Positions 7,581 through 49,816 of a stretch of DNA of 64,000 bases are shown here, one piece after another. The position numbers and the translations under genes are program-made. Where the stretch lies: positions 22,937,869-23,001,868 of the forward strand of contig NC_090413.1 of NCBI RefSeq assembly GCF_036365525.1. The letters are read 5' to 3'. The notes beneath the pieces were generated by a model. It was not told the origin of the DNA and made no database searches. It saw nothing but the letters and a program-made list of their open reading frames with translations. The stretch's first letter is position 1; every line of letters begins with the position of its first letter. Source of the stretch: Heterodontus francisci. Its lineage: Eukaryota.

Positions 7581-7686
7581 ACCAACCATGATCAAGTACG
7601 GAATCAATAACATCCGTGAGCTGGTGGGGCACAAGGTGAACCTACAGATGGTGTACGATAGCCCAGTCTGTCGCCTGGACTCTTAG
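7581..7686 (+). CDS. FARSA: FARSA terminal coding exon
   Basis: tgctttccag|A then [37 protein letters not shown]; matches the FARSA C-terminus. Confidence 0.97.
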
Positions 7687-10139: not shown

Positions 10140-10420
10140 CCGAGAGTGAAGACAATCAGAGGGGAACCTAGCTGAAATGTATAAAATATTCAATAAGATA
10201 AATACAAACTATAACTTTTAAATAAGGCAGAATATTAGAACCAATGGTCTTGAATATAAACTAGTGCAAAATAAATGCAGAAAGAACACCTTCATACAAA
10301 GAGTAGTAAATATCTGGAATAGTCTGACCAGGGAATTAAGAGACAAGCTGTAAGAGCATTCAAAACACAATTAGATTCTAGTCTGGCAGAGTTAGATGAG
10401 TTTCAGAGTATAAATTTGTC
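10140..10420 (+). mobile_element. Old CR1 3' fragment
   Basis: agaggggaacctagctgaaatgtataaaat..ttcatacaaagagtagtaaatatctggaat (RGDL.E.YK / F.QRVVN.WN). Confidence 0.55.
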
Positions 10421-10564
10421 TGATAACGCTCCTGTGAACCAGCTTGGGATGTTTTACTATGTTAAAGACGCTATAAAAATGCAAGTTGTCGAGTGGCCGT
10501 TCCTTGACCTTAATTTCTTGTCATATTCACAAATGTGTCGGCCGAACATGCATATATGTAATTA

Positions 10565-10570
10565 TTTATT
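10565..10570 (-). terminator. Candidate proximal poly(A) signal of the SMIM44-like gene
   Basis: tttatt on + (AATAAA on -), ~230 nt after the stop; another at 8510-8515. Confidence 0.4.
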
Positions 10571-10801
10571 TTGGCTTCTGCTACATTAGGAAATACATTA
10601 AGATTTATATATTTCATGGAGCGAAAATGTCACAAGTAATCTTGACCGATTTGTCAACATTATCAGTTACAATAAAACCGCTCAGTGGTGATGGCAGCTG
10701 ATGCCATTAGAATGAGTTCGGTCGGTGTTAACTGATGGAATGAGGATTTTGCTGTACAACTCCTCTTTGGTGAATCCATCCCCGTATTCCTGTCTCTGAA
10801 G

Positions 10802-10950
10802 TCACGTCTCTTGTGGTAGATGCAGAGTCTCCTCTTCTGGGATTTGGATTTCCTCCTGATTCTGGAGAGGGTACGAGGGTGTTTCACGGGTGACGCATTT
10901 CAGGTCATTGCCAGTCTCGCTATCCTGCTGCCTTGGACCAAATATGCAAT
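10802..10950 (-). CDS. SMIM44-like small integral membrane protein, exon 2
   Basis: Acceptor gttttcccaatag|AT; G+AT gives D, then CIFGPRQQDSETG...HLPQET-TGA; DCIFGP recalls DWAFGP of human SMIM44; joined protein 130 aa. Confidence 0.82.
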
Positions 10951-11009
10951 CTATTGGGAAAACATTTGAAGGAAGACAATTCACTTAAAAGTGGATGTGA
11001 TTTCTATCA

Positions 11010-11290
11010 TGTGCAATTATAGAATGGTCCAGCGCAGGAGACCACTCGGCCCGTCATACCTATGCCAGCTTTGGTAGAGCCATCAATTAGTCCTATTTCC
11101 CCTGTCCTTTTCCCACATCCCTGCAAATTTTTCCCCTTCAAATATTTATCCAATTTCCTTTCGAAAGTTATTATTGAATCTGCTTCCGCCGCTCTTGCAG
11201 GCTTTGTGTTCCAGAACTTGCTGACAGAAAAAAATTTCATCTCTCCTCTGGTTCATTTGCCAAATTTACTCCCTGGTTATTTGAAAGATT
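11010..11290 (-). mobile_element. CR1 3'-end fragment
   Basis: Translates as ..AEADSIITFERKLDKYLKGKNLQG.., typical CR1 C-terminus plus tail. Confidence 0.7.
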
Positions 11291-11304
11291 GAAGAGATAG
11301 GACA

Positions 11305-11705
11305 AACTTGCATTTAAATAGCAACTTTTAAAGTCCTCAAGATCTTCCAAAGCGCATTTTTTAAAAATAGTTATTCAATGTGTAAGAAAATGCAGTAGCC
11401 AATTTGCAGCAAGCACCATCTTTGCAAACAGCGATGAGACAAATGATCAGTTATTCTGTTGTGGGCGTGCATTCGAGAGATAAATGGTGGGCGGGAGACT
11501 GGGAGAACTCCTTGCTCATCCTTGAACTGTGCCGTGGGGGTTGGTTTAACAACTCATCCAAAAGATGGCACCAGTATCAATGTAACATTCCCTCACTACT
11601 GCACTGGAATGTCAGCTTAGATTTTGTGCTGGTTTGGAATTTGAATCCAGAGCCCCTCAAAGCCATGAGCATCACCAACTGCATCAGTGTACCTTGGCCA
11701 CTGAG
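11305..11705 (-). mobile_element. Deu-domain SINE, degenerate
   Basis: acttgcattt..ccaaagcgc..gggagaactcc..cattccctcactactgcactgg..tcagcttagatt. Confidence 0.55.
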
Positions 11706-12039
11706 CATTGGGCTAGAGAACGTGAGAAAGATACTCAGCCCTGCATGATTTTTATTTCAGGAGCTTGGATTTATGCAGCACTTTATCGCATCCCAAAGAG
11801 CTTTACAACTAATGAATTATGCTTAAAAGTTTTGCCACTGTTATTATGTAGCAGGCAATTTTATTTCCGGATTGGTGGGTGCAATAACTTAAAGGAGAGA
11901 TCATCAGGTGGTGCGGGATAGGGGGATTGCAGTTACTACAACCCACTTAAACTTTGAAGATTTACTAGTAGAAATGTAGTAACTGCCTTCTGATGATATT
12001 GTCTGGTGGGAATACTATATTAGTACACACAAGGTATAG

Positions 12040-12860
12040 AGTCATAGAGACTATTTATGGCACAGAAGGAGGCCATTTGGCCCATCGAGTCGATGCTGGC
12101 TTCACAGAGCTATCCAGTCAGTCCCACTCCTCCGCTCGATCCCTGTAGCCCTGCATGTTTATTTCCTTCATAGAGATAGATGGTTAGTTGTCTGTTGGAG
12201 TAATCATGCCCTAGTTTGTGATGTTGGGGTGATTTGGTTCCTCAAAGGATACAGTTGCCATAGTTATGATTCTTGGGTAATATTCCAGTGCTCGGGTATT
12301 CAAATCTCACCATGACAAGTTATTGAATTCAATATATTCGGGTATTTGGAGTCTAGCGCCAGGAAATGTAACCAGCTGGATTGTTAAAAGCCCAGCCCAT
12401 CTACTATTTTTTTCCCCTGTTGTTTTCCCACAGCCTTGCAATTTGTTTGCCTTTTCAAGTATTTATCTAATTTTCTTTTGAAAGTTACTATTGAATCTGC
12501 TTCCACCGCTCTTTTTAGACAGTGCGTTCCATTGCACTAGGTGAATTGCTCATTCGGAGAGCCGGTGCAGACATGATGGGCCGAATGGTCTCCTTCTGTG
12601 CTGTAATGATTCTGTGAAATCACAATTTGTTGCATGAAAGTGTTCTCATCCTTCCTCCCTCTACTCCCTTCCCCATTTCTTTTGCTAATTATCTTAAATC
12701 CAGCCCCCTCGCCTGTGAAAACAGTTTCTCCTTGTTTATGCAAGCCTTTCATAATTTTGGACACATTAACCTTCTTTGCCCTGGGAACAATCCAGTTTTT
12801 CTGTTCTCTTCACATAAACTGAAGTCCCTCATCGCTGGTCCTGTTCTAGTAAATCTCTGC
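12040..12860. mobile_element. Cluster of short CR1 3' fragments
   Basis: catagaga..ggaggccatttggcccatcgagtc; gggccgaatggtctccttctgtgctgtaatgattct; aaacagtttctccttgttt. Confidence 0.55.
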
Positions 12861-13789
12861 TGCCAGTAATACAAGAGATCCCACCACCACCACCTCCGGG
12901 CAATCAGGAATAATTCAAGTTCTGATCACATTAATGACCGCATACAGCTTTTTTTCAATTCTGAAGATTCAGATTTACCCGTTACATATTGCACATGACA
13001 GCAAAAATAACACATCAAATTGAAATACATCACAGTTAGTGTATAAAACCATTTTGCTGCTGTCTGGCCATTGGGAGTGAAGGTTTTATGAAATAATTCA
13101 ATGTAGCTGAACTCCTGTGGCATTGCTCAAGCATCACTGCATCACACCTGGAGTGTTGTACCATGTGATGCACAGATGTATTATTCTGCTGCTCAGGTGG
13201 AGCTGTGTGTTATTGGGTTGTTCCTTTAAGACCATAACATCTGACTAATGTAAGCAGGCACATCCTACGGTCAATTAGGGAATAAATGTTCTTAGTTCCG
13301 AGCAATACTGAGAGATTAGCAAGTGGGAGTGTGTGTTTACACATGTGCGTAATCATTCAGTGTGCTCCCTGTGCAGTACAAACAATACATTTGCAGAGTG
13401 AGTGTCATTTTTTTGATCTCACGTAATATCAAATGAGACCAGACTCCCAACGGTGAGGTGATTAAGCTGTCACTTCTAATAGACTGTGAGCTTTTAGTTC
13501 AAATAAGCATTGGTTAAGCACAGGTCAGCCAGCAACTTAATAACATGCTGCTCACTGTTAATAGCATTTAACAGAATAAGACTGAATAATTCAACTCAAC
13601 AGATTACTCTTTTAAAGTAATAACCCCCTCTCTGTGTGTTGCAGGGCAGGGGTCGGGCGTGCCTCAGATTCGACCCCTGGTCAGTACTGAGTTAGGTGAC
13701 CACATCCGTTGCTAATCTCTCATGGCATTACTCTGCACCAAGAGCCATTAGTCTCTGCTTGAGGTCATGACATTAATTGGTTGCTGTGG

Positions 13790-14430
13790 TCTTAAATTAC
13801 CATCGTTGAATCTCCCACCATCAATTTCCTTGGGGTTACCTTTGAGTAGAAACTTAACTGGAATGGCCATATAAATACTGTTACTACAAGAGTAAATCGG
13901 AGGCTGGGAATTCTGCAGTGAGTAACTCATCTCCTGACTCCCCAAAGACTGTCCAACATCTACAGAGCACAAGTCAGGATTACTCTCCACTTGCCCACAT
14001 TCGAAGCACGACACCAGCCAGGACAAAGCAGCCCGCTTGATTGGCACCCCATCCACTGACTTAAACATTCACTCCCTCCACCACTGGCGCACAGTGGCAG
14101 CAGTGTACCATCTGCAAGATGCACTGCAGCAACGCACCAAGGCTCCTTCAACAGCACCTTCTAAACCTGTGAACTATACTACCTAGAAGGACAAAGGCAG
14201 CAGACACACGGGACAACACCATCTGCAAGTTGCCCTCCAAACCACACATCATACTAGCGTGGAACTATATTGCCGTTCCTTCACTGTCACTGGGTCAAAA
14301 TGCTAGAACTCCCTTCCGAAAAGCACTGTGGGTCCAAGAAGACAGCTCACAACCACCTTCTCAGGTAATTAGGGATGGGCAATAAATGCTGGCCTAGCCA
14401 AGGACACCCACATCCCATGAAAGAATTTTT
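13790..14430 (+). mobile_element. CR1/L2-group LINE 3' fragment (same family as 59428-60725)
   Basis: caggacaaagcagcccgcttgattggcacccc..gggatgggcaataaatgctggcctagcca..cacatcccatgaa. Confidence 0.75.
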
Positions 14431-16067: not shown

Positions 16068-16358
<291 letters not shown>

Positions 16359-21435: not shown

Positions 21436-21719
21436 CAGGCATCCATATGCAAGCCTCTTCCAATCCTCCTTTGACCATATAGCTGGCCTCACAGTGTGCC
21501 TCCCCCTGGCTGAGATTAATACATGTGGAAGATGCCCTGCTGTGCTCAAGATGTGATCTGTCTAGAGCATTGCAGAGGTTTTTCTCTACAGACCTAAGCT
21601 CTACCAATTTAGCACTGTAGTTTGTCATTCATATTTCTTTGATTGCAGCATGTTGACATGTTAAGTGCCCCAAAAATACACAGAGACATGTAACCTCAGC
21701 CTGAGCCAATACACATTTC

Positions 21720-21725
21720 TTTATT
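21720..21725 (-). terminator. Candidate poly(A) signal for the repeat-protein gene
   Basis: AATAAA on - with GT-rich gtctctgtgtatttt ~35 nt downstream; implies a ~1.85-kb 3' UTR. Confidence 0.35.
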
Positions 21726-23574
21726 GCCAACATAATTCAGATTAGCTTATTCAGCACTGTGTTGTGAATGACTTCTCATGAGGTCAGTATTATCATACAC
21801 CAGGGTCGATAGTCATACATTTTCTATCATATTCACAGTTAGCAGTGATGGTCTTGTACTTATCCATGATTCTGACATCTCCAAGAGGTGAAATAAATCC
21901 CAGAAGCATAGAAAGTAGTCTAGTCTCAGAATGGACCTCAAAGCAGATTCTGCTGATGCTCAAGTCGCACGTGCTCTAAGAGGAATCTCTTGTGTTACTC
22001 CAGGGTGTCTGTCCACTATGATACCTGCCACTGAGGACAGAAAAGTGACACTGATGCAGTAGGGACTGTTCATGTGAGGTTGAAGTTTGTTGAGGCTGGG
22101 ACATTGGGGCTAATTTAAGAAGTAATTAGATGCTATGATGAGAAGATGGTATGTTTGGTATTCTGTAAGAATGTGATCAAATGGGTTGAACAAGGTTCTT
22201 CATCATTCATTGCCTCGGTCGTAACACTATCTTGAATAGATACTTTCTTTAATGCAGAGTAGAGGGAGCTTTACATCTAACTGCCCTCAACATGGCCTCG
22301 ATGCACTCTAGACTATCCACTCCATAATGATGACTGATGTGAGATAGATGTCACATAAGTTTGGGACAGATGGAGAAGGGGAGAGGAGATGATACTTTGG
22401 GAGTTGGGATTAAGGAAAGTTGGCAGAAGAGGAAGTTTTGCTCTTAAAGGGATATGGAGCCAAGGCAGCTGGATAGAGTTGGGATACAGATCAGACATGA
22501 TCTCATTGAATGGCGGAACCAAGATCAAGGGGCTGAATGACCTACTCTTGTTTCTATGTTCCCATATTCCTTTGCATCTACATGCACCATATCTGACAAT
22601 GAATACTTGGTGCCAACACTTTGTCTCTAGAATGGGGAGATGTCAATAGTTCCAACACTGATATATGAACAGAGAATTCACACAAAGAAAACAAGAAAGC
22701 ACAGTAAATGAAGAATATAAGGGATCTATGATGCCAGCTTCTCAGCCAGGAATTGATGGCTAAGTGTTTACCCACAGGCCATTTCCTTCCATTTTTAGTA
22801 TCCTCTGATGGGACCATCTTATATATCAGTTAACTTTGTCTTCATGCTCCGATGCTCCCAGTGAGATGCTGATCTGTAACAGCAGCAAGTGCAGGACAGA
22901 TTCTCTTTCAGTCTGCACAGTAGAAAGATCCCGGCCGCATTTTTGCTGAAACATCAGGGCATATTTGTGTGACTGACAAGGGAAGAGGCTGACATGTTCA
23001 AGTGGATTGTCACATGGTGTGGAATCTGATAAAAGGAGATATATTTCGGCAGTCCTGGTGATGAGATTGATAGCAGTACTGCGTGTTGTGGTGTCTACTT
23101 CGCACTCTCCTGTTACAGTATATAGCATCACTGGATTGCACATACCGTGAGATGGTAACACAGGTGTCCAGGTACTAAGTTGTGGATCTTGTCACTTGCA
23201 TTGTTAACTTAAAGACTCCATTTTAAAGTATTCACATTCCCCTCTCTCTGCCATTAATCTTCATTGAATTAGGGGTGTGTGTGAGTGGTGGGTTCGGCGA
23301 GAATTTCTTTCTGCTCATCAAGGAACATTTCAGTGACTCAGTATTGGTGTCAACCTAGTTAGAGGCAAAGTAGCGTTCGCTGCTAAAACCAAACCCCATA
23401 TCACATCGGTGTCCCACTTTTTCATTTTTCATAGCAGTGATTCATCATTAATTGAAGCTAAGTCTCTGAATAATATTGTCAAATTAAGGGTTGTTCTGCG
23501 CTGCAGGCCCATTCCCTAAAAGAAGCTATGTGGAGACTATCCCAAACCCATTCCATGTCGGACATTCCTCCTGC

Positions 23575-25557
23575 CTACTGGTTCGAACTTCCAGAGGATT
23601 TGCCTCCCGTCATTTTGTGTTTGCCACAGCTGCAGATTTCTGTTGGCTGTGCGCCCGCACAGGTTTTGGATCCAGGCTGTTTTGGTCTTCCACAGTTGCA
23701 GAATGATGATTGCTTTGCCTTCCCACAGTGGTTGGAACCTGTTGATTTTGTATTTCTATCTGTTGGTTCTTTCCATTTGCAGCCACCTGCTGGTTTTGGC
23801 TTTTCACTGGTTCTGTCTTCAGCCTTTTTTTTCTCACGGGGGTTAACCTCTGTTGATCTTGCATTTTCATTGGTACTACCTGCTGCTGCTGCTTTCCATT
23901 TACATCCACCGACATCTGCTGGTTTGGGTTGGGCGTGTCTATCGGTGCCAACTTCTGCTGTGTCATTGCATATACAGACACCTGCTGGTTTTGGCTCTTC
24001 ACTGGTTCTGTGTTCTGCTGCTTTTTGTTTCTCACAGGGGTTAACATCTGTTGGTTTGGCTTTTCCATCGGTGCTGCCTCCTGTCGCTTTACAGACACCA
24101 TCTTGTGCTGGTTTTGCTTTCTGCTCTTCTGCTGGTTTTGCTTTTCCTTCTTCTGATTTTGGTTTGGCACAGGTGTTGTCGTCTAGTGGTTTTGTGTGTT
24201 CCCCAGTGCTGTCTTCTGCTGGTTTTGCTTTTTCCTCTTCTGATTTTGGTTTAGCGCAGGTGCTGTCTTCTGCTGGTTTTGCTTTTTCCTCTTCTGATTT
24301 TGGTTTAGCGCAGGTGCTGTCTTTTGCTGGTTTTGCTTTTTCCTCTTCTGCTGGTTTTGCTTTTTCCTCTTCTGATTTTGGTTTAGCGCAGGTGCTGTCT
24401 TCTGCTGGTTTTGCTTTTTCCTCTTCTGGTTTTGCTTTTTCCTCTTCTGATTTTGGTTTAGCACAGGTGCTGTCTTCTGCTGGTTTTGCTTTTTCCTCTT
24501 CTGCTGGTTTTGCTTTTTCCTCTTCTGATTTTGGTTTAGCGCAGGTGCTGTCTTCTGGTTTTGCTTTTTCCTCTTCTGCAGGCTTTTCTTTTTCACCAGT
24601 GCTATCCTCTGCTGGTTTAGGTTTCTCGCTGCTTTCTGCCTCATGCTTCTCCTGGGCCTCCGCAGGTTCCTCCGCAGGTGCCTTCTTCTTGGTCTCCGCA
24701 GGTGCCTCCTCCTTGGTCTCCTCCTTGGCCGCCGCAGGTGCCTCCTCCTTGGCCTCCGCAGGTGCTGCCTCCTCCTTGGCCTCCGCAGGTGCTGCCTCCT
24801 CCTTGGCCTCCGCAGGTGCTGCCTCCTCCTTGGCCGCCGCAGGTGCTGCCTCCTCCTTGGCCGCCGCAGGTGCTGCCTCCTCCTTGGCCGCCGCAGGTGC
24901 CTCCTCCTTGGCCTCCGCAGGTGCTGCCTCCTCCTTGGCCGCCGCAGGTGCTGCCTCCTCCTTGGCCGCCGCAGGTGCCTCCTCCTTGGCCTCCGCAGGT
25001 GCTGCCTCCTCCTTGGCCTCCGCAGGTGCTGCCTCCTCCTTGTCTTCCGCAGGTGCTGCCTCCTCCTTGGCTTCCGCAGGTGCTGCCTCCTGGGCTTCCG
25101 CAGGTGCTGCCTCTTCCTGGTCCTTGGCTTCCGCAGGTGGTGCCTCCTCCTGGTCCTTGGCTTCCGCAGGTGGTGCCTCCTCCTGGTCCTTGGCTTCCGC
25201 AGGTGGTGCCTCCTCCTGGTCCTTGGCTTCCGCAGGTGGTGCCTCTTTCTGGTCCTTGGCTTCCGCAGGTGGTGCCTCTTTCTGGTCCTTGGCTTCCGCA
25301 GGTGGTGCCTCCTCCTGGTCCTTGGCTTCAGCAGGTGGTGCCTCCTCCTGTTCCTTGGCTTCCGCAGGTGGTGCCTCCTTCTGGTCCTGGGCTTCCGCAG
25401 ATGGTGCCTCCTCCTGGTCCTTGGCTTCAGCAGGTGCTTTCCCTTCCTGGTCCTGGGCTTCTGCAGGTGCTGCCCCTTCCTGGTCCTGGGCTTCTGCAGG
25501 TGCTGCCCCTTCCTGGTCCTGGGCTTCCGCAGGTGTTGACTGCTGCTTGTTTTCCAT
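23575..25557 (-). CDS. Uncharacterised intronless tandem-repeat protein, ~660 aa (A/E/K/P-rich, Cys-rich C-terminus)
   Basis: First in-frame ATG at 25557 in strong context (gaaATGG), in-frame TGA just upstream; repeat units of 33, 27/24 and 54 nt; the ~180 diverged C-terminal codons also remain open. Confidence 0.72.
   Translation of the reverse strand: MENKQQSTPAEAQDQEGAAPAEAQDQEGAAPAEAQDQEGKAPAEAKDQEEAPSAEAQDQKEAPPAEAKEQEEAPPAEAKDQEEAPPAEAKDQKEAPPAEAKDQKEAPPAEAKDQEEAPPAEAKDQEEAPPAEAKDQEEAPPAEAKDQEEAAPAEAQEAAPAEAKEEAAPAEDKEEAAPAEAKEEAAPAEAKEEAPAAAKEEAAPAAAKEEAAPAEAKEEAPAAAKEEAAPAAAKEEAAPAAAKEEAAPAEAKEEAAPAEAKEEAAPAEAKEEAPAAAKEETKEEAPAETKKKAPAEEPAEAQEKHEAESSEKPKPAEDSTGEKEKPAEEEKAKPEDSTCAKPKSEEEKAKPAEEEKAKPAEDSTCAKPKSEEEKAKPEEEKAKPAEDSTCAKPKSEEEKAKPAEEEKAKPAKDSTCAKPKSEEEKAKPAEDSTCAKPKSEEEKAKPAEDSTGEHTKPLDDNTCAKPKSEEGKAKPAEEQKAKPAQDGVCKATGGSTDGKAKPTDVNPCEKQKAAEHRTSEEPKPAGVCICNDTAEVGTDRHAQPKPADVGGCKWKAAAAGSTNENARSTEVNPREKKKAEDRTSEKPKPAGGCKWKEPTDRNTKSTGSNHCGKAKQSSFCNCGRPKQPGSKTCAGAQPTEICSCGKHKMTGGKSSGSSNQ
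24130..25533 (-). repeat. Compound coding minisatellite
   Basis: 13 x 33 nt (PAEAKDQEEAP, ~25105-25533); ~15 x 27/24 nt (PAEAKEEAA/PAAAKEEA, ~24700-25105); 6 x TCAKPKSEE units on a 54-nt base with 24/21-nt KPAEEEKA inserts (~24130-24620). Confidence 0.95.
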
Positions 25558-25919
25558 TTCCACAGGAGCTGGTTGGCTTACAGCTGACACAGGTCTTCAT
25601 TTGTGAACATGGGCAGTGAGTGCTGGCAACTTGATGGACCGTGGGGCATCACAATGAAGCTTAGCCCTTTTGTCACCTGATATACACCTTGTTCTGACTG
25701 CAGCAGGGAGTCACAGGCTTGAAGGGGGGCAGGGGGGAGGGGAGAAATTGTCACAACTCCTCCAATTTATGGATGCTGAGGCCAGTTTAAGTGGCTCTTC
25801 CTGCCATCCCAGCTCAGAGTAGTCAAGAGCACAAAGTAAGGGCCCAAAAATGGAACCCCCCTGAGCTCACTAACTGATGCTTATTGGATGATAGTAGCAT
25901 CATACACAGCTATGTTGCT

Positions 25920-31219: not shown

Positions 31220-34200
31220 TTAGAATTAGAACATTACAGCGCAGTACAGGCCCTTCGGCCCTCGATGTTGCGCTGACCTGTGAAACCATCTGACCTACAC
31301 TATTCCATTTTCATCCATATGTCTATCCAATGACCAGTTAAATGCCCTTAAAGTTGGCGCGTCTACTACTGTTGCAGGCAGGGCGTTTCACGCCCCTACT
31401 ACTCTCTGAGTAAAGAAACTACCTCTCACATCTGTCCTATATCTATCACCCCTCAACTTAAAGCTATGTCCCCCTCGTGTTTGCCATCACCATCCGAGGA
31501 AAAAGACTCTCACTATCCACCCTATCTAACCCTCTGATTATCTTTATATGTCTCTATTAAGTCACCTCTCCTCCTCCTTCTCTCCAACGAAAACAACCTC
31601 AAGTCCCTCAGCCTTTCCTCGTAAGACCTTCCCTCCATACCAGGCAACATCCTAGTAAATCTCCTCTGCACCCTTTCCAAAGCTTCCACATCCTTCCTAT
31701 AATGCGGTGACCAGAACTGCACGCAATACTCCAGGTGCGGTCTCGCCAGAGTTTTGTACAGCTGCAGCATGACCTCGTGGCTCCGAAACTCGAACCCCCT
31801 ACTAATAAAAGCTAACACACCATATGCCTTCTTAACAGCCCTATTAACCTGGGTAGCAACTTTCAGGGATTTATGTACCTGGACACCAAGATCTCTCTGT
31901 TCATCTACACTACCAAGAATCTTCCCATTAGCCCAGTACTCTGCATTCCTGTTACTCCTTCCAAAGTGAATCACCTCACACTTCTCCGCATTAAACTCCA
32001 TTTGCCAGCTCTGCAGCCTATCTATGTCCCTCTGTACCCTACAACATCCTTCGGCACTATCCACAACTCCACCGACCTTAGTGTCATCCGCAAATTTACT
32101 AACCCACCCTTCTACACCCTCTTCCAGGTCATTTATAAAAATGACAAACAGCAGTGGCCCCAAAACAGATCCTTGCGGTATACCACTAGTAACTAAACTC
32201 CAGGATGAACATTTGCCATCAACCACCACCCTCTGTCTTCTTTCAGCTAGCCAATTTCTGATCCAAAGCTCTAAATCACCTTCAACCCCATACTTCCGTA
32301 TTTTCTGCAATAGCCTACCGTGGGGAACCTTATCAAATGCCTTATTGAAATCCATATACACCACATCCACTGCTTTACCCTCATCCACCTGTTTGGTCAC
32401 CTTGTCGAAAAACTCAATAAGGTTTGTGAGGCACGACCTACCCTTCACAAAACCGTGCTGACTAATGAATTTATTCTTTTCAAGATGATTATAAATCCTG
32501 TCTCTTATAACCTTTTCCAACATTTTACCCACAACCGAAGTAAGGCTCACAGGTCTATAATTACCAGGGCTGTCTCTACTCCCCTTCTTGAACATGGGGA
32601 CAACATTTGCTATCCTCCAGTCTTCTGGCACTATTCCTGTCGACAATGACGACATAAAGATCAAGGACAAAGGCTCTGCAATCTCCTCCCTGGCTTCCCA
32701 GAGAATCCTAGGATAAATCCCATCTGGCCCAGGGGACTTATCTATTTTCACACTTTCCAAAATTGCTAACACCTTCTCCTTGTGAACCTCAATCCCATCT
32801 AGCCTAGTAGTCTGAATCTCAGTATTCTCCTCGACAACATTTTCTTTCTCTACTGTAAATACTGACGAAAAATATTCATTTAACGCTTCCCCTATCTCCT
32901 CTGATTCCACACACAACTTCCCACTACTATCCTTGATTGGCCCGAATCTAACTCTAGTCATTCTTTTATTCCTGATATACCTATAGAAAGCCTTAGGGTT
33001 TTCCTTGATCCTATCCGCCAATGACTTCTCGTGTCCTCTCCTTGCTCTTCTTAGCTCTCCCTTTAGATCCTTCCTGGCTAGCTTGTAACTCTCAAGCGCC
33101 CTAACTGAGCCTTCACGTCTCATCCCAACATAAGCCTTCTTCTTCCTTTTGACAAGCGCTTCAACTTCTTTAGTAAACCACGGCTCCCTCGCTCGACAAC
33201 TTCCTCCCTGCCTGACAGGTACATACTTATCAAGGACACGCAGTAGCTGCTCCTTGAATAAGCTCCACATTTCGATTGTGCCCATCCCCTGCAGTTTCCT
33301 TCCCCATCCTACGCATCCTAAATCTTGCCTAATCGCGTCATAATTTCCTTTCCCCCAGCTATAATTCTTGCCCTGCGGTATATACCTGTCCCTGCCCATC
33401 GCTAAGGTAAACCTAACTGAATTGTGATCACTATCATCAAAGTGCTCACCTACATCTAAATCTAACACCTGGCCGGGTTCATTACCCAGTACCAAATCCA
33501 ATGTGGCATCGCCCCTGGTTGGCCTGTCTACATACTGTGTCAGAAAACCCTCCTGCACACACTGGACAAAAACTGACCCATCTAAAGTACTCGAACTATA
33601 ATATTTCCAGTCAATATTTGGAAAGTTAAAGTCCCCCATAACAACTACCCTGTTACTCTCGCCCCTGTCGAGAATCATCTTCGCTATCCTTTCCTCTACA
33701 TCTCTGGAACTATTCGGAGGTCTATAGAAGACTCCCAACAGGGTGACCACTCCTCTCCTGTTTCTAACCTCGGCCCATACTACCTCAGTAGACGAGTCCT
33801 CAAACGTCCTTTCTGCCGCTGTAATACTCTCCTTGATTAACAATGCCACCCCCCCTCCTCTTTTACCATCTTTTCTGTTCTTACTGAAACATCTAAATTC
33901 CGGAACCTGCAACATCCATTCCTGCCCCTGCTCTACCCATGTCTCCGAAATGGCCACAACATCGAGATCCCAGATACCAACCCATGCTGCAAGCTCACCC
34001 ACCTTATTCCGGATGCTCCTGGCGTTGAAGTAGACACACTTTAAACCAAGTTCTTGCTTGCCAGTGCCCTCTTGCGTCCTTGTAACCTTATCCCTGACCT
34101 CACTACTCTCAACATCCTGTACACTGGAACTACAATTTAGGTTCCCATTCCCCTGCTGAATTAGTTTAAACCCCCCTGAAGAGCACTAGCAAATCTCCCC

Positions 34201-34453: not shown

Positions 34454-34870
34454 AGATCTGTGACCTTTCATCAGAACTGGCAAAGGTTAGAAAATAATTA
34501 GGTTTAAAGCATATGAAGGGGAGGAGGGTGGGGAAGAGAACAAAGGGGAAAGTGTTTGATAGGGCAGAGGGAGAATAAATAACAAAGCTGTCCTGGGACA
34601 AAGGCAAAGAGTGTGTTAATGCTTGTGGTGAAAGACAAAGCATTAGTCCAGAGAGACTGTTAATAGCGGAATAATGAGTGACTCTGACTACATGAAAAGC
34701 AGGCATTTGGTTAAAAAATAAAATATTTAAAAAGCCAGTCATGCTCTGAAGTTGTTGAACTCAACGTTTAGTCCTCAAGGCTGTAAAGTGCCTAATTGAA
34801 AGATCAGGTGCTGCTCCTTGAGCTTGCGTTGATGTTCACTGGAACACTGGAGGAGGCCAAAGACAGAAAT
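34454..34870 (-). mobile_element. Penelope-A fragment, part 2
   Basis: Resumes atctgtgacctttcatcagaactgg; diverged paralogue of 35310-35430; ends at TSD caaagacagaaat (34858-34870). Confidence 0.8.
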
Positions 34871-37800
34871 AAAAACAAGAAATGCTGGAATCACTCAGCA
34901 GGACTGGCAGCATCTGTGGAAAGAGAAGCAGAGTTAACGTTTCGGGTCAGTGACCCTTCATTGGAACTGACAAATATTAGAAAAGTCACAGATTATAAGC
35001 AAGTGAGGTGGGGGTGGGGCAAAAGATAACAAAGGAGAAGGTGCAGATTGGACCAGGCCACATAGCTGACCAAAAGGTCACGGAGCAAAGGCAAACAATA
35101 TGTTAATGGTGTGTTGAAAGACAAAGCATTAGTACAGATTAGGTGTAAATACACTGAATATTGAACAGCAGCAAGTGCAAACCTGAAAAAAACAGTGGGT
35201 AAGCAAACTGAACAAACTAAGATGAAATGAAATAAATGCAAAAAAAGATTGTAAAAAAAGAATGTAGAAAAAAGGAAGAAAAAATAACTAAAAATGAAAG
35301 TAAAATGGGGGGCTGTCATGCTCTGAAATTATTGAACTCAATGTTCAGTCCGGCAGGCTGTAGTGTGCCTAATCGGTAGATGAGATGCTGTTCCTCGAGC
35401 TTGCGTTGATGTTCACTGGAACACTGCAGCAATCCCAGGACGGAGATGTGAGCATGAGAGCAGGCGGGAGTGTTGAAATGGCAAGCAACCGGAAGCTCAG
35501 GGTCCTGCTTGCGGACTGAGCGGAGATGTTCCGCAAAGCGGTCACCCAGTCTGCGCTTGGTCTCCCCAATGTAGAGGAGACCACACTGTGAGCAGCGAAT
35601 ACAGTATACTACATTGAAAGAAGTACAAGTAAATCACTGCTTCACCTGAAAGGAGTGTTTGGGGCCTGGGATAGTGAGGAAAGAGGAGGTAAATGGGCAG
35701 GTATTACACCTCCTGCGATTGCAGGGGAAGGTGCCCTGGGACGGGGACGAGGTGGTGGGGGTAATGGAGGAGTGGACCAGGGTGTCGCGGAGGGAATGAT
35801 CCCTTCGGAATGCTGACAGGGGAAGGGAGGGGAAGATGCGACTGGTAGTGGCATCACGCTGGAGGTGGCGAAAATGGCGGAGGATGATCCTTTGGATATG
35901 GAGGCTGGTGGGATGAAAAGTGAGGACAAGGGGAACCCTGTCACGGTTCTGGGAGGGAGGGGAAGGGGTGAGGGCAGAGGTGCGGGGAATGGGTCGGACA
36001 CAGTTGAGGGCCCTGTCAACCACAGTGGGGGGAAATCCTCGGTTGAGGAAAAAGGAGGTCATATCAGAAGCACCGTCATGGAAGGTAGCATCATCAGAGC
36101 AGATGCGTCGGAGACGGAGAAACTGGGAGAATGGAATGGAGTCCTTACAGGAGGTAGGGTGTGAAGAAGTGTAGTCGTGGTAGCTGTGGGAGTCGGTGGG
36201 CTTATAATGGATATTGGTAGACAACCTATCCCCAGAGATGGAGATAGAGAAGTCGAGGAAGGGAAGGGAAGTGTCAGAGATGGACCATGTAAAGGTGAGA
36301 AAAGGGTGGAAATTGGAAGCAAAGTTGATAAAGCTTTCTAGCTCGGGGCGGGAGCAGGAAACGGCACCGATACAGTCATCAATGTACCAGAAAAAGAGTT
36401 GGGGGAGGGGGCCTGAGTAGGACTGGAACAAAGAATGCTCGACATATCCCACAAAAAGACAGGCATAACTAGGACCCATGCGGGTACCCATAGTGACACC
36501 TTTTACTTGAAGGAAGTGAGTGGAGTTGAAGGAGAAGTTGTTCAATGTGAGAACAAGTTCAGCCAGGTGATGGTGGATGGAGACTGGTTGGGCCTCTGTT
36601 CCAGGAAGAAGCGGAGAGCCCTCAAACCATCCTGGTGGGGGATGGAGGTGTAGAGCGATTGGACGTCCATAGTGAAGAGGAGGCAGTTGGGACCAGGAAA
36701 CTGGAAATTGTCAAAATGACGTAGGGTGTCAGAAGAGTCACGGATGTAGGTGGGAAGAGACTGGACCAGCGGAGAAAAGATAGAGTCTAGATAGGAAGAA
36801 ATAAGTTCAGTGGGGTAGGAGCAGGCTGACACAATGGGTCTGTCGGGACAGTCCCGTTTGTGGATTTTGGGAAGGAGGTAGAAGCGGGCTGTCCGGGGTT
36901 GTGGGACTATGAGGTTGGAAGCTGTAGAGGGAATATCTCCAGAGGAGATGAGGTCAGTGACAGTCCTTTGGACGGTGGCTTGATGTTCGGTGGTGGGGTC
37001 ATGGTCCAGAGGGAGGTAGGAAGAGGTGTCTGTGAGTTGGCATTGAGCTTCTGCAAGGTAGAGGTCAGTATGCCATACAACAACAGCACCACCCTTGTCT
37101 GCAGGTTTGATGACCATGTCGGGGTTAGACCTGAGAGAACAGAGTGCCTCAAGTTCAGAGGGGGACAGGTTAGAGTGAGTGAGGGGGACAGAGAAATTGA
37201 GACGACCAATGTCTCGCCGACAGTTTTCAATGAAGAGATCAAGAGCGGGTAAGAGGCCAGGGGGAGGGGTCCAGGTAGAGGGAGAATGCTGGAGGCGGGT
37301 GAATGGGTCTGCTGGTCGGGGGGAGGACTCCTGGTCGAAGAAGTGAGCCCGGAGGCGGAGGCGACGGAAGAAGAGCTCAACGTCATGCCGAGCGCGAAAT
37401 TCATTGAGGTGGGGGCGTAAGGGGATAAAACTGAGACCTTTGCTGAGTACAGAACGCTCATCATCAGAGAGGGGGAGGTCAGAGGGTATAGTGAATACAC
37501 GGCAAGGGGTCAGATCAGAAGGGGTGGGGTCAGAGGGAAGTGAAGCGGAAGGAGGATCTGGAGGGGCATTAGTCCCCATCAGCTGCTGGAGCTTGCGTTC
37601 CTTAACACCTGAAAGGAAGAAAAAAAGTTTTTTGTTAATGCGTCGGATGAGACGTAAGATGAGATGAAACTGCGGAGTAGAACAGCTTTGAGATAAGGTG
37701 AGACGCTGCTGCTGGAGAGAGAGGTCCAGTGTGTGCATGTGGCGGCACATAGCACTGAGTGTGGATCTCAGGATGCGGCGAGACTAGCAGTCCGAGGAAC

Positions 37801-38363
37801 GTTGTATTTCTCGGAGATACCTGTGATCCTGGGTGGTATCAAAGCATGATGGGTGAAACTGCAGTTGGAATCCACGTGGAATAAGTCGGAGCCGGAGACA
37901 GTCACTGAGGAAGGAGATGTGGCTGTGGAAACGAGTTTTGGTAGATACCTTATCAAACACCAGGAGGGAAATAGAAAACAATGAAGGTGAACAAGGTAAA
38001 AGAGACAAACGAAAATCCCGTCGGAGAGAAGAGCAGAACTTCTTCAAGGTAGGCATCCCTGGAAGAGAAGTGGCAGTGAATTAAACACTAAAATAAAAGC
38101 AAAATACTGCGGATGCTGGAAATCTGAAATAAAAACAAGAAATGCTGGAATCACTCAGCAGGTCTGGCAGCATCTGTGGAAAGAGAAGCAGAGTTAACGT
38201 TTCGGGTCAGTGACCCTTCTTCGGAACTGACAAATATAAGAAAAGTCACAGATTATAAGCAAGTGAGGTGGGGGTGGGGCAAGAGATAACAAAGGAGAAG
38301 GTGTAGATTGGACCAGGCCACATAGCTGACCAAAAGGTCACGGAGCAAAGGCAAACAATATGT
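34871..38363 (-). mobile_element. Near-complete Penelope-like element (Neptune type), Penelope-B
   Basis: ORF from ATG 38056 in frameshifted pieces: IKPADKGGAVVV, FYLLPKIHK, TMDVQSLYTSIP, MGTRMGPSYA, YIDD, Cys linker PCNRRRCNTC, GIY-YIG (VYCIRCSQCGLLYIGETKR); 238-bp direct pLTR repeats 34866-35103 and 38126-38363. Confidence 0.93.
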
Positions 38364-38499
38364 CAAAGACAGAAATGTTGGCATGAGAGCAGGGGGGAGT
38401 GTTGAAATGGCAAGCAACCGGAAGCTCTGGGTTTTGCTTTCGGACTGAGCGTTGGTGTTCAGCAAAGCAGTCACCCAATCTGCGTTTGGTCTTCCCAAT
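38364..38499 (-). mobile_element. Penelope-A fragment, part 3 (GIY-YIG region)
   Basis: YIGKTKRRLGDCFAEH..PVACHFN on -; begins with TSD copy caaagacagaaat (38364-38376). Confidence 0.8.
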
Positions 38500-38840
38500 G
38501 TAGATAGGGAGAAATTGTTCCCACTCGTGAAAGGATTGAGAACGAGAGGGCACAGATGTAAGGTCATTGGCAAAAGAAGCAATGGTGACATGAGGAAAAA
38601 CTTTTTCTCACAGCGACTGGTTAGGATCCGGAATACACTGCCAGTGAGTGTGGTGCAAGCAGGTTCAATCGAGGCATTTAAAAGGGAATTAGATAGTTAT
38701 CTAAAAAGGAAGAATGTTCAGTGTTACGGGGAGAAGGCAGGGGATTGGCACTAAGTGAATTGCTCATTCGGACTGCCAGTGCAGACACAATGGGCTGAAT
38801 GGCCTCCTTCTGTGCTGTAACAATTCTGTGATTCTGTGAA
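38500..38840 (+). mobile_element. CR1-A, right part with 3' tail
   Basis: Starts with TSD copy gtagatagggagaa (38500-38513); VDREKLFPLV..RTRGH..KNFFSQR; tail attctgtgattctgtga. Confidence 0.9.
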
Positions 38841-45030: not shown

Positions 45031-45137
45031 ATGGCTGACAAGGATTATGACAGTGAGCAAAAGATGGGAAGCATTAATGAAAGCACACCACAAATTAGTG
45101 GCTGCAGGAAGAATCTCTACGCTGAAGTAGATTTAAG
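45031..45137 (+). CDS. SYCE2: SYCE2 first coding exon (predicted)
   Basis: ttag|atcaggATGG; MADKDYDSEQKMGSINESTPQISGCRKNLYAEVDL; AG|gtgagc, phase 2 matching the next exon; sequence itself not recognisably conserved. Confidence 0.7.
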
Positions 45138-46529
45138 GTGAGCAGAGCTGGAGTTGTTATTCTGTTTTTGTAAGAGAGCAAAAGTTAAACTGACCCACAG
45201 TGTGCTGGAGAATCCAAACTTTTGCTATCAGTGATTGTTTGGGTGGGTTCTATGCAGTTTTGTGGGCCACACGGCCTAGTTTTTCTGCTTGAGTTACACC
45301 TGACATACTTTACATCATTTACACAAAAGCAACCCTAGATGCCAGGAATGCATGATGTTCAGTGTAACTATGAGCGGCAGAGGGGTCTTTTAAAATTTAA
45401 GTAACCATAAATTGTGCAGTCAATCTGTGATTGATCAATTGCCTCTGCTTGGGATCCAATTTTAAACTTAACTACTTTTAAAAAAAATATTCTTTAGAAG
45501 GCAGCGCAGAGGCAGTGAATTTCCCCTGAGGAGATTTTTTTCTCTCATGCTCCCTGTTTTTGGTGGATCTGTTTAAGATTGGCAATACGGGTTAAAGGTT
45601 AATGAAAATCAGTGACATTTTAAAACACCCGTTTCAGGTAAGTCTCTGCTTATTCCCTGACGTTTACAATGCACTGGAAACTTAACTGTACCTTAAATTG
45701 GAATGCTACCGTTTTTGAAAAAGGTTGCATAACCCTACCCCACATGTGTGTTCTGATGGCCCAGTTAGCAAACACTGTGTGTTATTGACATGGTCCAGAT
45801 TTGATTCCTATGAGAGAGGTTTGCGGAAGTTCCTGGAGCAGGGGATATAAACCAGACGCAAGTTCTGCTCTTGCATTAAACACTGGTGTTACTTTGGTAA
45901 AATTTTAAAGGTTGGGTACAGCTAGTGCTTAAATCTATAATTTATAACATTTTCTAAGTATGTTTCACACTCCTTATTTGGGCATCACCATTCTCTGACA
46001 CACACAAGCATATGCAAATGCAAGCTCCTACCACAAGCTTCATAAGCCTGCATCTTTATCTACAGGCTCTCTAACACACTTGGTAATTCATTTTGCCTGA
46101 CTTGCCTTGGACAAAGCTGCAGGAGGTCTACCCATATTGATTAAAAATAATCCAGGTATAAATCTGATATAGTGCTATAAAGGCCCCCACATATTAAACA
46201 AATATTTGCCTCTTAGATATCTTACAGCTGTTCCTCCATGTTAAATACACAAATTATTTGTAACTGTACTTTGGAAGGAGAACATGCTTATTTCTCTGTC
46301 GGCAGTGGGTTCGGAACACACTATTTTCCAGGAAACAATCAAAAACACTTAGTTCATTGAGCATATTTTTGACAAGATGCTTTTCAAATCCTTTCAGCAA
46401 AGATGTACACCTCACCATCTGCCTTGCAACAGTGTAACCTCCAACTGAGCAATTATGAGACATTTGCGAATAAAAAATATAAAAGTCTTGTGCCTAGTGG
46501 ATACCTGTCCTGCTCAAACCTGAATTTGA

Positions 46530-46945
46530 CTTTCTCCCACCTCTTCAACTTTGCCCCTCTCTGCCTGTATCTTTCCTTTTGCCCTGTTGAAACTCTAGTC
46601 CATATCTACATAGGACTTTTCTAACACTGCCCGAGCTACCCTCTCTGCTTCAAGCCTCCACTCAGCCCACCATTCTCACCCACACTACAGTCACCCCTGA
46701 CCTGACTCGCACTAAGTCTTGCACTATCACCGCTGTCCTTTCCTGGCAATATGGGTTTTCCGTACCCCAGAGTGTCAATTTTCAAAATCCTCATCCTTGT
46801 TTTCAAACCTCCCCATGGCTTTGCTGCATCCTGCCATTGCTTTCCGTTCCCACATACACCCTCCTTTCCTCCAACACTGGATTATTTGCTCACCGTTTAC
46901 TCCCTCTGCTCCATCGCTGGCAGCTGCTTGTTCAGCCACTTAGAA
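46530..46945 (+). mobile_element. Degenerate L2-like fragment
   Basis: tgttgaaactctagtccat..ttttcaaaatcctcatccttgttttcaaacctccccatggc. Confidence 0.45.
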
Positions 46946-48757
46946 AGAGGAACTCCTCAATGGGCCAAATGGCATCCTTCTGAGCCATGATGATTCTATG
47001 ATTCATGTCACCTTCATGATGACAGGTGACTTAAAATATATATTAATTGTCACATCTATAACTGTGGCAATCACAAGCATCAGTGGTCAAGAGCTAGGGA
47101 GAGAGGGCAAGCGAGCATGACTTGTTCCATCACATTTACTGGCATTGGTTCCATTTATCCCTTTGTTTTCCTCCACCTTATCCATTTTATCAATATCTCC
47201 TTACAGATTCCTTTGATCGTCAGGAATGTTAGCCAGGACATTCGCACATGCGTGCCACGATTAGCTGGCTTTCTGTCATTTCTGCCAACAAAATTGTGTA
47301 TCAGAAAATGTGCAGCCATTGTTTTGGATCTCAACCATTAAATATGGTAAAATAAGGAGGCATTGAATCCATTTTTCAGATAAAGAGGAAAATATATTCC
47401 ATAACCTATTGCAAAGATGTTTGTTATTTCAGGTGCTGTGCTGTACATTAAGTAAAGTTTGCATATGTGCTATATGCTTCTACTATTCCCCCATGCACCC
47501 CAACCCCTCCCCCACCCTTGATCATTTGGAGTATGGAGTTCTTTATAGGTTTAAATAGAATGCCAGGAATACTGAGATGATAGTGCGTAGGAACCAGGTG
47601 ATTGATGTATAATAATTCATCATTTTTGATATGCACTGTACCTTTTCTTAACTCAGTGGTTGGATAAATAACCAAAATACAGCCTGGAAATATGCCTTGA
47701 GAGTATAGGTGTACTTTAATGGAGGTGTTAACCTTGCATTTAAGGAGAAGCTAGATAAGTACATGAGTGGGAAAGGAATGGAAGGATATGCAGATAGAAT
47801 TAGATGAAGTAGGGTGGGAGAACGCTAATGTGGAGCATAAACACTGGCATGGGCCCGTTTGGCTGATTGGCCTGTTTGCAAATTCTATGTGACCTATATT
47901 TCTACAGGGCAACCCAGAATTCTATCAGGAGAGAGTTCTTCCCCTCCTTGCACTGTGAAGACCTAAGGCTACAGATGTCACATCATGTATGTACCCTTGC
48001 ATCTGCAACTGGCTTGTGCTAAATTGACGCCGTGTGAGGTTCAGGTTTGCATTCAGCTGGACTTTACTATGAAAAAGGGAAAATTCAAATTTCAATCATC
48101 CAGAGAAGACCATCCTACCAGCAGATGATAGCAGTGATGATCCTGAACTCGGCAACACAATGATTTATGCCGCGCGCTCTCATACACTAGGTATACTAGG
48201 AGAATTGCCATTAATAGAAGATGCTCAGTAATGAACAAGTCATGTTGGTTGAGCTCCTATAACCTTTCCCTCTGCCCGTGATTCTTGACCAGTGATGTTA
48301 GGATTCTCTCTTCGTAACACGTTGGCTGAATATTTTGGCTACCATGTCAAACCACATAAATAGGTTGGAGTTTATAGTTTGGTTGATGATCCAATCCTCC
48401 CAGTCCAAGGCAAGTCCCTCTTTATTTGGTTTACTGTCTGTTCTTAAATTGTTCTCCCTTTATTTTTATGGGGAGCCTCATGGGTTACTTGAAAACTTCT
48501 TGTAATTGCACTCTCAGAGAACAGGAACTAAAGATGTCTGGCTTGAGGTACCTTTATATAATCCTGGAAGGGAAGATCGTATACCTTCCTCTAAAAGGGT
48601 CAGATGCTGCCACCATATTTTATACTCTGGTTGGGAGGTTTAGGACATTTGGTTTCGGAAGGTTTAGTTCATTTTATGAATGACTTACATATATAGGTGC
48701 ATTTAGATATAGTCACTTACCGATCTATGATTGTAATTATATTTTCTCCTGTAACAG

Positions 48758-48977
48758 AGCAGAATCCTCTGGTTTAGTTGATGAAGTAACGGAAAACTCA
48801 GATGTTGAGGATTCTACACTTGATTTCAGTGTCAAGCCCTCGAACTGTTTTGCAACATCAGATTCCAGTGTTGATGGGCTATGTGAACGAACAAAACAGC
48901 TGGTTAACGAAATAAACAAAAGTAGGATAAAGGACCACAAGTTGATGAGCAACTTTAAAGACACTCTTATTTTGAAG
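48758..48977 (+). CDS. SYCE2: Synaptonemal complex central element protein 2, exon
   Basis: ctgtaacag|A..AAG|gtaatt; ..DSSVDGLCERTKQLVNEINKSRIKDHKLMSNFKDTLILK aligns with human DSSIDILQKRAQELIENINKSRQKDHALMTNFRNSLKTK (recalled). Confidence 0.9.
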
Positions 48978-49621
48978 GTAATTATATATCCTTTCTGAAG
49001 CCAACCAAACATTGAAAAGCTATAATTTATGTAAGGCAGCTTTTTGCGTGAAGAACGTTATGTGTTTGTGTGTCAAGATAATTATTTCTTTCACAGGACT
49101 TTGCTCTTCATAAAGTTCTGTAGCTCCTGTGAAGAACAGCCTAGATTACTCGCCAGCTGTTTCACGTGGGTGTCATGTGCAGTAAATTTTGTGATGCAGA
49201 ACAAAGGGAGTCCCATGCACTATTATTTACCTATATATGGGATTGTGTTTAGGACATGTGTAGAACAATCTCTGCTCAGTTCCAGGTCAGTGCTGAGTTT
49301 GCTCATCTTAGGTGCTACAGTTGGCCTTGGTATCCCTAGGTGAGGGAGGGGAAAGATCAGCCAGTTCTGTCTCCAGATCATTGTCTATTGTTTCCGTGTT
49401 GGAAAGTTCCCCTGTGATCTTTGGATGAAATCTGAATTGGCGTTGGCCTTGATGATGTCCACTTACTCATCATCAAGATTCACACGTGATGACTTGCCAG
49501 GTTAGTGAGAGGCACCAGAGAGCTGCTGGTGCCAGTGAAACTATACCCGAGGCTTTAGGGTTGGCTGTGAGAACCGGTGAGAAAATTGGGGAAAGGAGAT
49601 ATAACCCTTGTAATTTTTAAG

Positions 49622-49816
49622 GTTACAGAATTCTCTAAGAAGATAGAAGAAGGATTGTTTGAAATCTACAACAATGAGAACAAATTGATTGAGGACACGC
49701 TGCAAGAGCTGCTGAACATCCTGGATAGGATCAGATGTTTAGAGTCCGAACTTAAACAGACCTGCAGTGCCATGGCCACAGTCTACAAGGACATGTGTAC
49801 CCAGCCAGAAGTATAA
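49622..49816 (+). CDS. SYCE2: SYCE2 last coding exon
   Basis: tttttaag|GTT; VTEFSKKIEEGLFEIYNNENKLIEDTLQE..LESELKQTCSAMATVYKDMCTQPEV-TAA, versus human LETELKQVCHSVETVYKDLCLQPE; joined protein 173 aa. Confidence 0.92.
   Translation, partial: VTEFSKKIEEGLFEIYNNENKLIEDTLQELLNILDRIRCLESELKQTCSAMATVYKDMCTQPEV

Follow-up and report, generated by a model that had tools for sequence, protein, structure and literature searches.

Within the 64,000-nucleotide (nt) stretch of Heterodontus francisci DNA analyzed here (the window; contig NC_090413.1, positions 22,937,869 to 23,001,868) lies an open reading frame (ORF) of 660 codons that is built of tandem repeats and changes its chemistry along its length, from an acidic front to a basic, cysteine-rich end. 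The question that this locus raises is how one unbroken frame came to hold two such different halves, and whether it encodes a protein. The new observation is a +2-frame match to the Cys-bearing 3' units, which is seen in the 5' repeat arrays and also in the sequence surrounding the start codon; the two halves share sequence out of register. The acidic half is likely the product of a Gly/Cys array that switched frame and acquired a new start, and the ORF is, judged from its sequence, probably protein-coding. The ORF (main ORF, read in the main frame) and its parts are as follows.

25557..23575, minus strand: main ORF, 660 amino acids (aa), a single coding exon without internal stop, predicted to be disordered, with an acidic-to-basic charge gradient
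25088..25535, minus strand: 33-nt array, 13.6 copies with 93% matches, PAEAKDQEEAP-type units in the main frame
24718..25151, minus strand: 27/24-nt array, about 16 copies, PAEAKEEAA-type units in the main frame
24118..24657, minus strand: middle Lys/Glu arrays, residues 301-480
23578..24117, minus strand: diverged basic tail, residues 481-660, with three CxC motifs, two GGCKWK motifs and one internal duplication

An earlier reading of this DNA, made from the letters alone and called the original prediction here, had described an ORF of about 660 codons in a strong Kozak context, and both points were confirmed, the start codon having G at -3 and G at +4. Its description of an acidic N-terminal half free of aromatic residues was also accurate: residues 1-300 consist of Ala/Glu/Pro/Lys repeats (107 A, 79 E, 39 P) with a net charge of -60, and the only aromatic residues of the whole protein are W554, W595 and F619. 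Lys/Glu repeats fill the middle part as described, and the roughly 18 cysteines that had been placed in the C-terminal half are indeed all found there (18 in total, none before residue 339; six in the middle part and 12 in the tail). The predicted basic C-terminus with GGCKWK twice, CIC, CNC and CSC is present, the tail having a net charge of +12 and residues 491-660 an isoelectric point (pI) of 9.2, compared with a pI of 4.7 for the entire protein. Charge climbs along the protein from about -12 per 60 residues to +9. All repeat lengths had been claimed to be multiples of 3, which is the case in 15 of 15 Tandem Repeats Finder rows within the ORF. The proposed disorder is supported by low-confidence models without a fold: the predicted local distance difference test (pLDDT) is 0.30 for the ESM Atlas model of the 660-aa protein and 42 for the tail in AlphaFold2 (single sequence), with a predicted TM-score (pTM) of 0.17 for the latter. 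Neither a signal peptide nor a membrane segment was found in the protein, and residues 1-300 contain no hydrophobic stretch. The observation underlying the original prediction is confirmed and its interpretation partly supported.

The relationship between the two halves becomes visible when the 5' arrays are read in the +2 frame. They then carry Ser-Thr-Cys and Gly-Gly-Ser-Thr words, encoded by the same nucleotides that are used in the main frame in the middle part and the tail; within the 27/24-nt array, the +2 frame yields Gly/Cys/Ser/Thr units and the +1 frame Arg/His units. Words shared by the two halves are found off-frame versus in-frame at 13 to 1 for 10 nt and 8 to 0 for 11 nt (repeat copies counted), and the longest off-frame word spans 14 nt, which was equalled in 15 of 2000 and 6 of 2000 controls. 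Aligned in the +2 register, the 27-nt unit of the 5' arrays and the Cys-bearing 27-nt unit of the middle part, which has the same period, agree in 18 of 27 nt (P 0.003). The similarity includes the start codon: the segment 25571-25530, which spans the ATG, has 30 of its 42 nt in common with the tail when the two are aligned in the +2 register (P 0.0007). The leader peptide of the upstream +2 frame listed here agrees with the last tail unit in 8 of 16 residues (P 0.004-0.005).

25427..25600, minus strand: +2 frame from the upstream ATG at 25600, Cys/Gly-rich, 57 aa to the first TGA

The homology continues across the main ATG into the DNA upstream of it, and divergence is greatest among the 3' units; on these grounds the Cys-periodic reading would be the older one. 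The +2 frame is now interrupted by TGA codons at 25429 and 25330 and closes at 24643. The array variant that underlies these two stops changes no main-frame residue, in keeping with the main frame as the reading that is now tolerated.

Coding constraint on the 3' half is supported by several measures, and the tail is the part of the ORF with the strongest evidence. Among 5000 dinucleotide shuffles, an open sense frame of whatever register occurred for the tail with P 0.004, and for the whole ORF in no shuffle. The tail contains 14 TGN codons (12 Cys, 2 Trp) and not one TGA, while 51% of its other codons end in A (P about 5e-5), avoidance of TGA in the middle part reaches P 0.001, and position-preserving shuffles of the tail predict 7.9 stops where none is observed (0 of 5000 shuffles open); these stop-avoidance values are too small, since the tail units descend from duplications. 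Cysteines in the tail exceed the expected 2.0-2.7 four to six times, a count of 12 being reached in none of 5000 shuffles, and over the ORF the Cys codons alternate between TGT and TGC (10:8). Codon-position bias in the tail is pronounced (chi-square P 5e-10). The tail was also considered as a dispersed repeat, which was ruled out by a contig depth of 0-9, compared with 3,300-14,300 over a fragment 1 kb away that we take to be CR1-like, and by the lack of a second copy elsewhere in the 64-kb window. The 5' half has only 36 T in 900 nt on the ORF strand, and four of its six frames are stop-free, the other two having one and two stops. As this half is T-poor and triplet indels keep every frame, its openness and triplet periods are weak coding evidence. 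The original argument for coding constraint rather than a satellite thus stands for the 3' half and is weak for the T-poor 5' half, which has no excess of synonymous variants.

Other frames over the same DNA are open as well.

23528..25606, plus strand: antisense shadow ORF, 692 aa, Ser/Ala/Gly/Leu/Phe-rich, sharing third codon positions with the main frame
24183..25577, minus strand: +1 frame, open for 464 codons, first Met at codon 312

Two more plus-strand frames are open for more than 330 codons across the 5' arrays. Resampling of codons was used to compare the main ORF with the antisense ORF. Given the main protein, the antisense tail was open in 29% of trials and the whole antisense frame in 0.7% of 3000; given the antisense protein, the main-frame tail was open in 0.07% of trials and the whole main frame in 0 of 3000. 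The antisense ORF is a less likely gene than the main ORF. The +1 frame contains 137 Arg and 39 His in its first 310 codons, arranged in Arg/His repeats, and no ATG precedes the Arg-rich part. A single stop separates this open stretch, with its protamine-like Arg/His repeats, from the upstream ORF of 23 codons that shares its frame. Variants among the repeat units are synonymous in the +1 frame in 5 of 14 cases (P 0.36; 38 repeat units were used for all such counts, truncated 8-codon and irregular units being left out), and in the tail the main protein is enough to account for its openness.

The region preceding the start codon contains three out-of-frame ATGs, located 43-92 nt upstream, and two features of possible relevance to the transcript.

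25578..25649, minus strand: 23-codon upstream ORF in the +1 frame, with an ATG at 25649 and another at 25610; its end is 20 nt short of the main ATG
25717..25740, minus strand: splice-acceptor-like site with the best score (pyrimidines at 14 of 15 positions), 160 nt upstream of the main ATG

The main frame ends in its own TAG and is closed upstream by a stop at about 25599 (about 14 codons). Owing to the latter, the candidate acceptor at 25717 would provide 5' untranslated region (UTR) only, and the stretch between the main ATG and this stop holds only weak acceptors. The term intronless, used in the original prediction, is valid for the coding sequence; it does not extend beyond it, since a non-coding upstream exon ending at this acceptor is possible. 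Donor-like sites are located at 25679, 23984, 23882 and 23789. Within 1.3 kb of the main-ORF stop no canonical poly(A) signal was detected, the nearest being ATTAAA at 22253 and AATAAA at 21725. Contigs from four sequencing runs of two studies (X1-X4, RNA only by guess) were compared with 21600-24200; X1 had been picked because it contains the stretch. It provided one 163-nt contig over 23807-23964 with a single synonymous difference (G560) at a depth of 4, and low depth at 24036-24200. X2 and X3 yielded exact flank contigs of 170 and 229 nt, of comparable depth, but none within the ORF; X4 gave nothing unique. The depth over the ORF is at background level and speaks neither for nor against transcription. 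The low-depth exact contigs at 21964-22192 (X3) and 22328-22497 (X2) are near the poly(A)-like signals and could represent a distal 3' UTR, precursor mRNA of the neighboring SMIM44-like gene or DNA background.

The gene order in the window is FARSA, the SMIM44-like gene, the main ORF and SYCE2.

7582..7683, plus strand: FARSA, last coding exon (PDB 3l4g, E 1e-16)
10802..10950, minus strand: SMIM44-like gene, coding exon 2
16094..16337, minus strand: SMIM44-like gene, coding exon 1
45031..49816, plus strand: SYCE2 (PDB 6r17, E 1e-15), with a CpG-rich, promoter-like stretch near 43400-43560

The junction of FARSA and SYCE2 named in the original prediction was correct with respect to both flanks, but the two-exon SMIM44-like gene between FARSA and the ORF had been missed, as had the 692-codon antisense ORF and the out-of-register relation of the two halves. 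This overlooked neighbor is on the same strand as the main ORF, 7.2 kb downstream of it. Its 130-aa product is 100% identical to the RefSeq entry 'small integral membrane protein 44-like [Heterodontus francisci]' of NCBI and is conserved across jawed vertebrates (179 matches). Its ATG follows a splice acceptor, so that an unlocated upstream exon exists. Human SMIM44 is located at 19p13.3, and the copy next to FARSA may be a paralogue that stems, we presume, from the NFIX/NFIC duplication. The SYCE2 exons (45031-45137, 48758-48977 and 49622-about 49816) join into one open frame of 173 aa. The stretch at 43400-43560, CpG-rich and with motifs resembling a cAMP response element (CRE) and an E-box, is located some 1.5 kb upstream of the first coding exon of SYCE2 and is likely its promoter.

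In the databases searched, the main ORF is an orphan by sequence comparison. The tail had no match among 1.84 billion representative proteins, a collection which may lack low-complexity or unannotated proteins such as the main ORF and did not return the ORF's own sequence either. No match to the tail was obtained among 1514 candidate proteins of 363-1155 aa, nor to the whole protein at E <= 0.001 among the best 8000 candidates. The library of all lengths was searched with the tail; the 5' and middle repeats, and full-length relatives that are shorter or longer, lie outside that search. The exact sequences of the main ORF, the 692-aa antisense ORF and the 57-aa +2 peptide are absent from the protein collection. 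Pfam searches with the main ORF, its parts and three other frames returned nothing beyond DUF7871 at E 3.6, and PDB sequences gave no match to the tail and only a chance match (E 0.66) to the +2 peptide. There was no usable feature match in the ESM Atlas, where all structure matches had TM <= 0.28, and none of 188 pattern matches in metagenome contigs was confirmed. As a control for coverage, five named shark and ray SMIM44-like orthologues were found in the same protein collection that contained nothing matching the main ORF; this control is imperfect, as the main ORF itself is missing from that collection though it is in the ESM Atlas. The exact 660-aa sequence is present in the ESM Atlas and some gene caller therefore predicted the same protein, which is no evidence of a product. 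The orphan status claimed in the original prediction was thereby upheld for the 1.84 billion representatives, Pfam and the PDB, with no match to a characterized gene, and no description of this locus or protein was found in the open-access literature.

The explanation that we favor, at a little less than an even chance, is an unbroken repeat ORF that encodes a disordered structural protein whose acidic front derives from a re-read Cys/Gly repeat. That the main ORF is an expressed protein is regarded as likely and, given expression, a frame switch as fairly probable; a switch with the main frame alone translated is held tentatively. The locus would have grown through serial duplication of a unit of about 27 nt with one Cys codon, the copies becoming younger from the 3' to the 5' end. 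An ancestral protein that was Cys-periodic throughout would have begun at ATG 25600. The 5' copies would then have become acidic Ala/Glu/Pro repeats through a shift of frame around residues 290-320 combined with an ATG inside old +2 Gly-Asn-Gly codons, and afterwards have expanded by triplet slippage. The product would be cytosolic or nuclear because it has no signal peptide or membrane segment. Its basic Cys-rich end may be the anchor to a scaffold, either through disulphide cross-links, in a cell undergoing terminal differentiation, or through CxC sites that carry zinc or palmitoyl groups, and the acidic arm of about 300 residues may serve as a hydrated spacer or bind Ca2+ or polycations. 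Intracellular Cys-rich single-exon repeat proteins typically occur in the accessory structures of sperm and in cornifying cells. Germ cells or sperm would be the first tissue to consider, on account of this prior and the weak hint of the meiotic neighbor SYCE2; a site outside both groups is somewhat less probable, and skin or another cornifying tissue is unlikely.

A number of points weigh against this interpretation. All frame-switch tests are post hoc, having been chosen after the pattern was seen, two protein-level +2 tests of the repeat units are not significant (P 0.066, 0.10), and the halves also have one in-frame 10-nt word and the PAE motif in common. No orthologue was found in the databases searched. 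Variants in the 5' units are synonymous in the main frame in 4 of 14 cases (P 0.48), with no excess in any frame, and those in the middle arrays in 6 of 13 (P 0.057), compared with 8 of 13 in the antisense frame (P 0.016). Avoidance of changes to hydrophobic residues or stops among units is not significant either (0/14, P 0.07; 1/13, P 0.29), and the duplication history inflates the stop-avoidance evidence, as described above. Cys positions have partly decayed between the duplicated tail blocks (Cys to Trp, Cys to Arg), which makes a precise metal site less likely. The three upstream out-of-frame ATGs would dampen translation unless skipped, the product is predicted only, and the tissue preference is a prior without a pointer in the data.

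These points bear on the competing explanations to different degrees. The locus might be a decaying pseudogene, the true gene having encoded a Cys/Gly-rich protein from ATG 25600 that was broken by the two TGA codons and a frame shift; the 660-codon frame would then persist only because the arrays lack T, and the constraint on the tail would be historical. The missing synonymous excess in the 5' arrays, the +2 homology reaching 5' of the main ATG, the upstream ATGs and the decayed cysteines all agree with such decay, but the surviving frame begins at a strong-context ATG right where the array starts and runs over 660 codons with no stop and no non-triplet net indel. The single public-contig difference, being synonymous, points the same way, although with n = 1 it has no power. 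We consider a pseudogene unlikely. Similarly unlikely is a real protein without a switch, in which the acidic repeats would be ancestral and the off-frame likeness would reflect a purine-rich vocabulary or compensated local shifts that created the 3' Cys codons. The in-frame word, the PAE motif, the non-significant protein-level tests and the post hoc choice of tests fit this explanation, against which stand the excess of off-frame over in-frame words and a match that continues through and upstream of the start codon. A metallothionein-like metal buffer, in which the CxC sites bind Zn or Cu and the acidic arm further cations, would account for the three CxC and two CKW motifs at homologous positions; these motifs may resemble those of metallothionein. 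With only 12 of 180 tail residues being Cys, no Pfam or PDB match and no predicted fold, a metal buffer is quite improbable.

The remaining explanations concern other frames or genes. That the 692-aa antisense ORF on the plus strand is the gene and the main ORF its shadow is suggested by its greater length, its nearly identical ends, the synonymous middle-array variants and the rarity with which the whole antisense frame opened on resampling of the main protein. Against it, the reverse test left the main frame open in no trial (for the tail, 29% with the main protein given versus 0.07% with the antisense protein given), and the exact antisense protein is absent from the collection and without Pfam match, leaving this idea highly improbable. 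No better is the prospect that the main ORF is an exon or fusion partner of its SMIM44-like neighbor: the two are on the same strand, the neighbor needs an upstream exon and donor-like sites exist, yet all five named shark and ray proteins (of seven inspected, search span 44-142 aa) start at the homologous Met with lengths of 127-130 aa, and the main frame is closed both about 14 codons upstream of its ATG and by its own TAG. Hardly more credible is an arrangement of three repeat proteins in three frames of one exon, the acidic and Arg/His products forming a charge pair that packages sperm chromatin. The +2 frame would then be an ancestral loricrin-like Gly/Cys polymer, now interrupted, the main frame the present acidic polymer, and the +1 frame a protamine-like polymer of 464 codons, entered through splicing, initiation at a non-AUG codon or read-through of the single stop of the upstream ORF.

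Several other elements occur in the window. A near-intact ORF2 of a long interspersed nuclear element (LINE; 31522-33915, minus strand, 797 aa) has endonuclease and reverse transcriptase Pfam matches, which suggests a young insertion. A second retroelement, which we take to be Penelope-like, extends from about 34800 to 38400 with minus-strand ORFs at 36542-37750 and 35634-36491; it has a repeated terminal stretch near 34800-35300 and 38130-38590, and its 402-aa ORF is without Pfam match. At 56225-56830 (plus strand), a 201-aa ORF with a Cys-rich start followed by LINE-like sequence has only one sub-threshold Pfam match and is presumably a LINE ORF1 fragment.

Orphan single-exon repeat proteins are common in vertebrates, and orphan status alone is of modest interest. 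This locus appears to record a wholesale change of chemistry, from a Cys/Gly cross-linking polymer to an acidic spacer with the Cys-rich end kept. If expressed in testis or skin, the protein would be a candidate counterpart in cartilaginous fish, by convergence, of the Cys-cross-linked proteins of amniote sperm tails and cornified skin. The FARSA-SMIM44-like-SYCE2 interval is easily found in other shark and ray genomes, which makes the frame-switch idea directly testable.

Among known systems, several combine repeats with acidic or Cys-rich sequence. The GNAS XLalphas/ALEX dual-coding exon and frameshift-derived repeat neoproteins such as MUC1fs are examples of repeat-rich exons with an acidic reading in one frame and a basic or Cys-rich reading in a second; they are unrelated in sequence, and each alternative frame at the present locus is either disrupted or devoid of a start codon. 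BASP1, GAP43 and MARCKS resemble the main ORF in their Ala/Glu/Pro/Lys composition, low pI and lack of a hydrophobic core, but residue 2 of the main ORF is Glu, leaving no Gly2 for myristoylation, and there is no N-terminal Cys pair and no Pfam match. Secreted acidic proteins (SCPP, HRC, xP2/APEG) were rejected because of the absence of a hydrophobic stretch in residues 1-300 and the frame closure upstream. HRC has an acidic-then-Cys order, which is also that of the main ORF. Compared with metallothionein and HRC, the main ORF has far fewer Cys, no signal peptide and no His-rich blocks in the main frame; membership in the metallothioneins was rejected on an overall content of 18 Cys in 660 residues and that of the tail, versus about 30% Cys in these short proteins, and on the missing database matches.

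The simple epidermal differentiation complex (SEDC) proteins are described as encoded by one coding exon and composed of tandem repeats of few residue types, with Lys/Gln at the ends and richness in Cys and Pro (PMC7393497, PMC4245816). The main ORF is like loricrin, involucrin, SPRRs and tuatara EDPKC in these features. It differs in its position beside FARSA, the SMIM44-like gene and SYCE2 rather than in an S100A-flanked cluster, in its strongly acidic product and in the lack of a sequence match. Read in +2, the 5' arrays are rich in Gly, Cys and Ser, a composition resembling that of loricrin. In PMC4245816, ray-finned fish, the coelacanth and amphibians are reported as groups where SEDC genes were not detected; its main text never uses the word 'shark'. 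A pyrimidine-tract splice acceptor 10-30 nt before the ATG is given as a criterion (PMC4760078, PMC4245816); the AGs located 11, 19 and 26 nt upstream of the main ORF have 6-8 of 15 pyrimidines, and the SMIM44-like exon 1 acceptor scores 7 on the same count. A TATA box of the SEDC type with a donor 60-90 nt later was not detected on the minus strand over 43400-25600 in a strict scan that gave none on the control strand either. A precedent for a frame shift between reptile EDC genes was not found in the main texts of PMC7393497, PMC5366951, PMC4245816 and PMC4760078, and the interpretation given here does not rely on one.

The second comparison is with acidic sperm-tail proteins of the FSCB type, FSCB being described as a post-meiotic, testis-specific flagellar protein (10.1101/2024.11.26.625329). 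Homology to FSCB was not found at E <= 0.001 with either the whole protein (8000 candidates) or the tail. FSCB has Pro/Ala/Glu repeats and a single coding exon, and the Cys-rich SMCP and ODF1 are cross-linked through Cys; the main ORF resembles this group, which also includes CABS1, in repeats and coding exon and may do so in Cys linking. In FSCB a unique N-terminal part is followed by C-terminal repeats, the reverse of the order in the main ORF, and its locus is a different one. By analogy, the main-ORF protein may work like the SEDC proteins or like FSCB while being a member of neither family.

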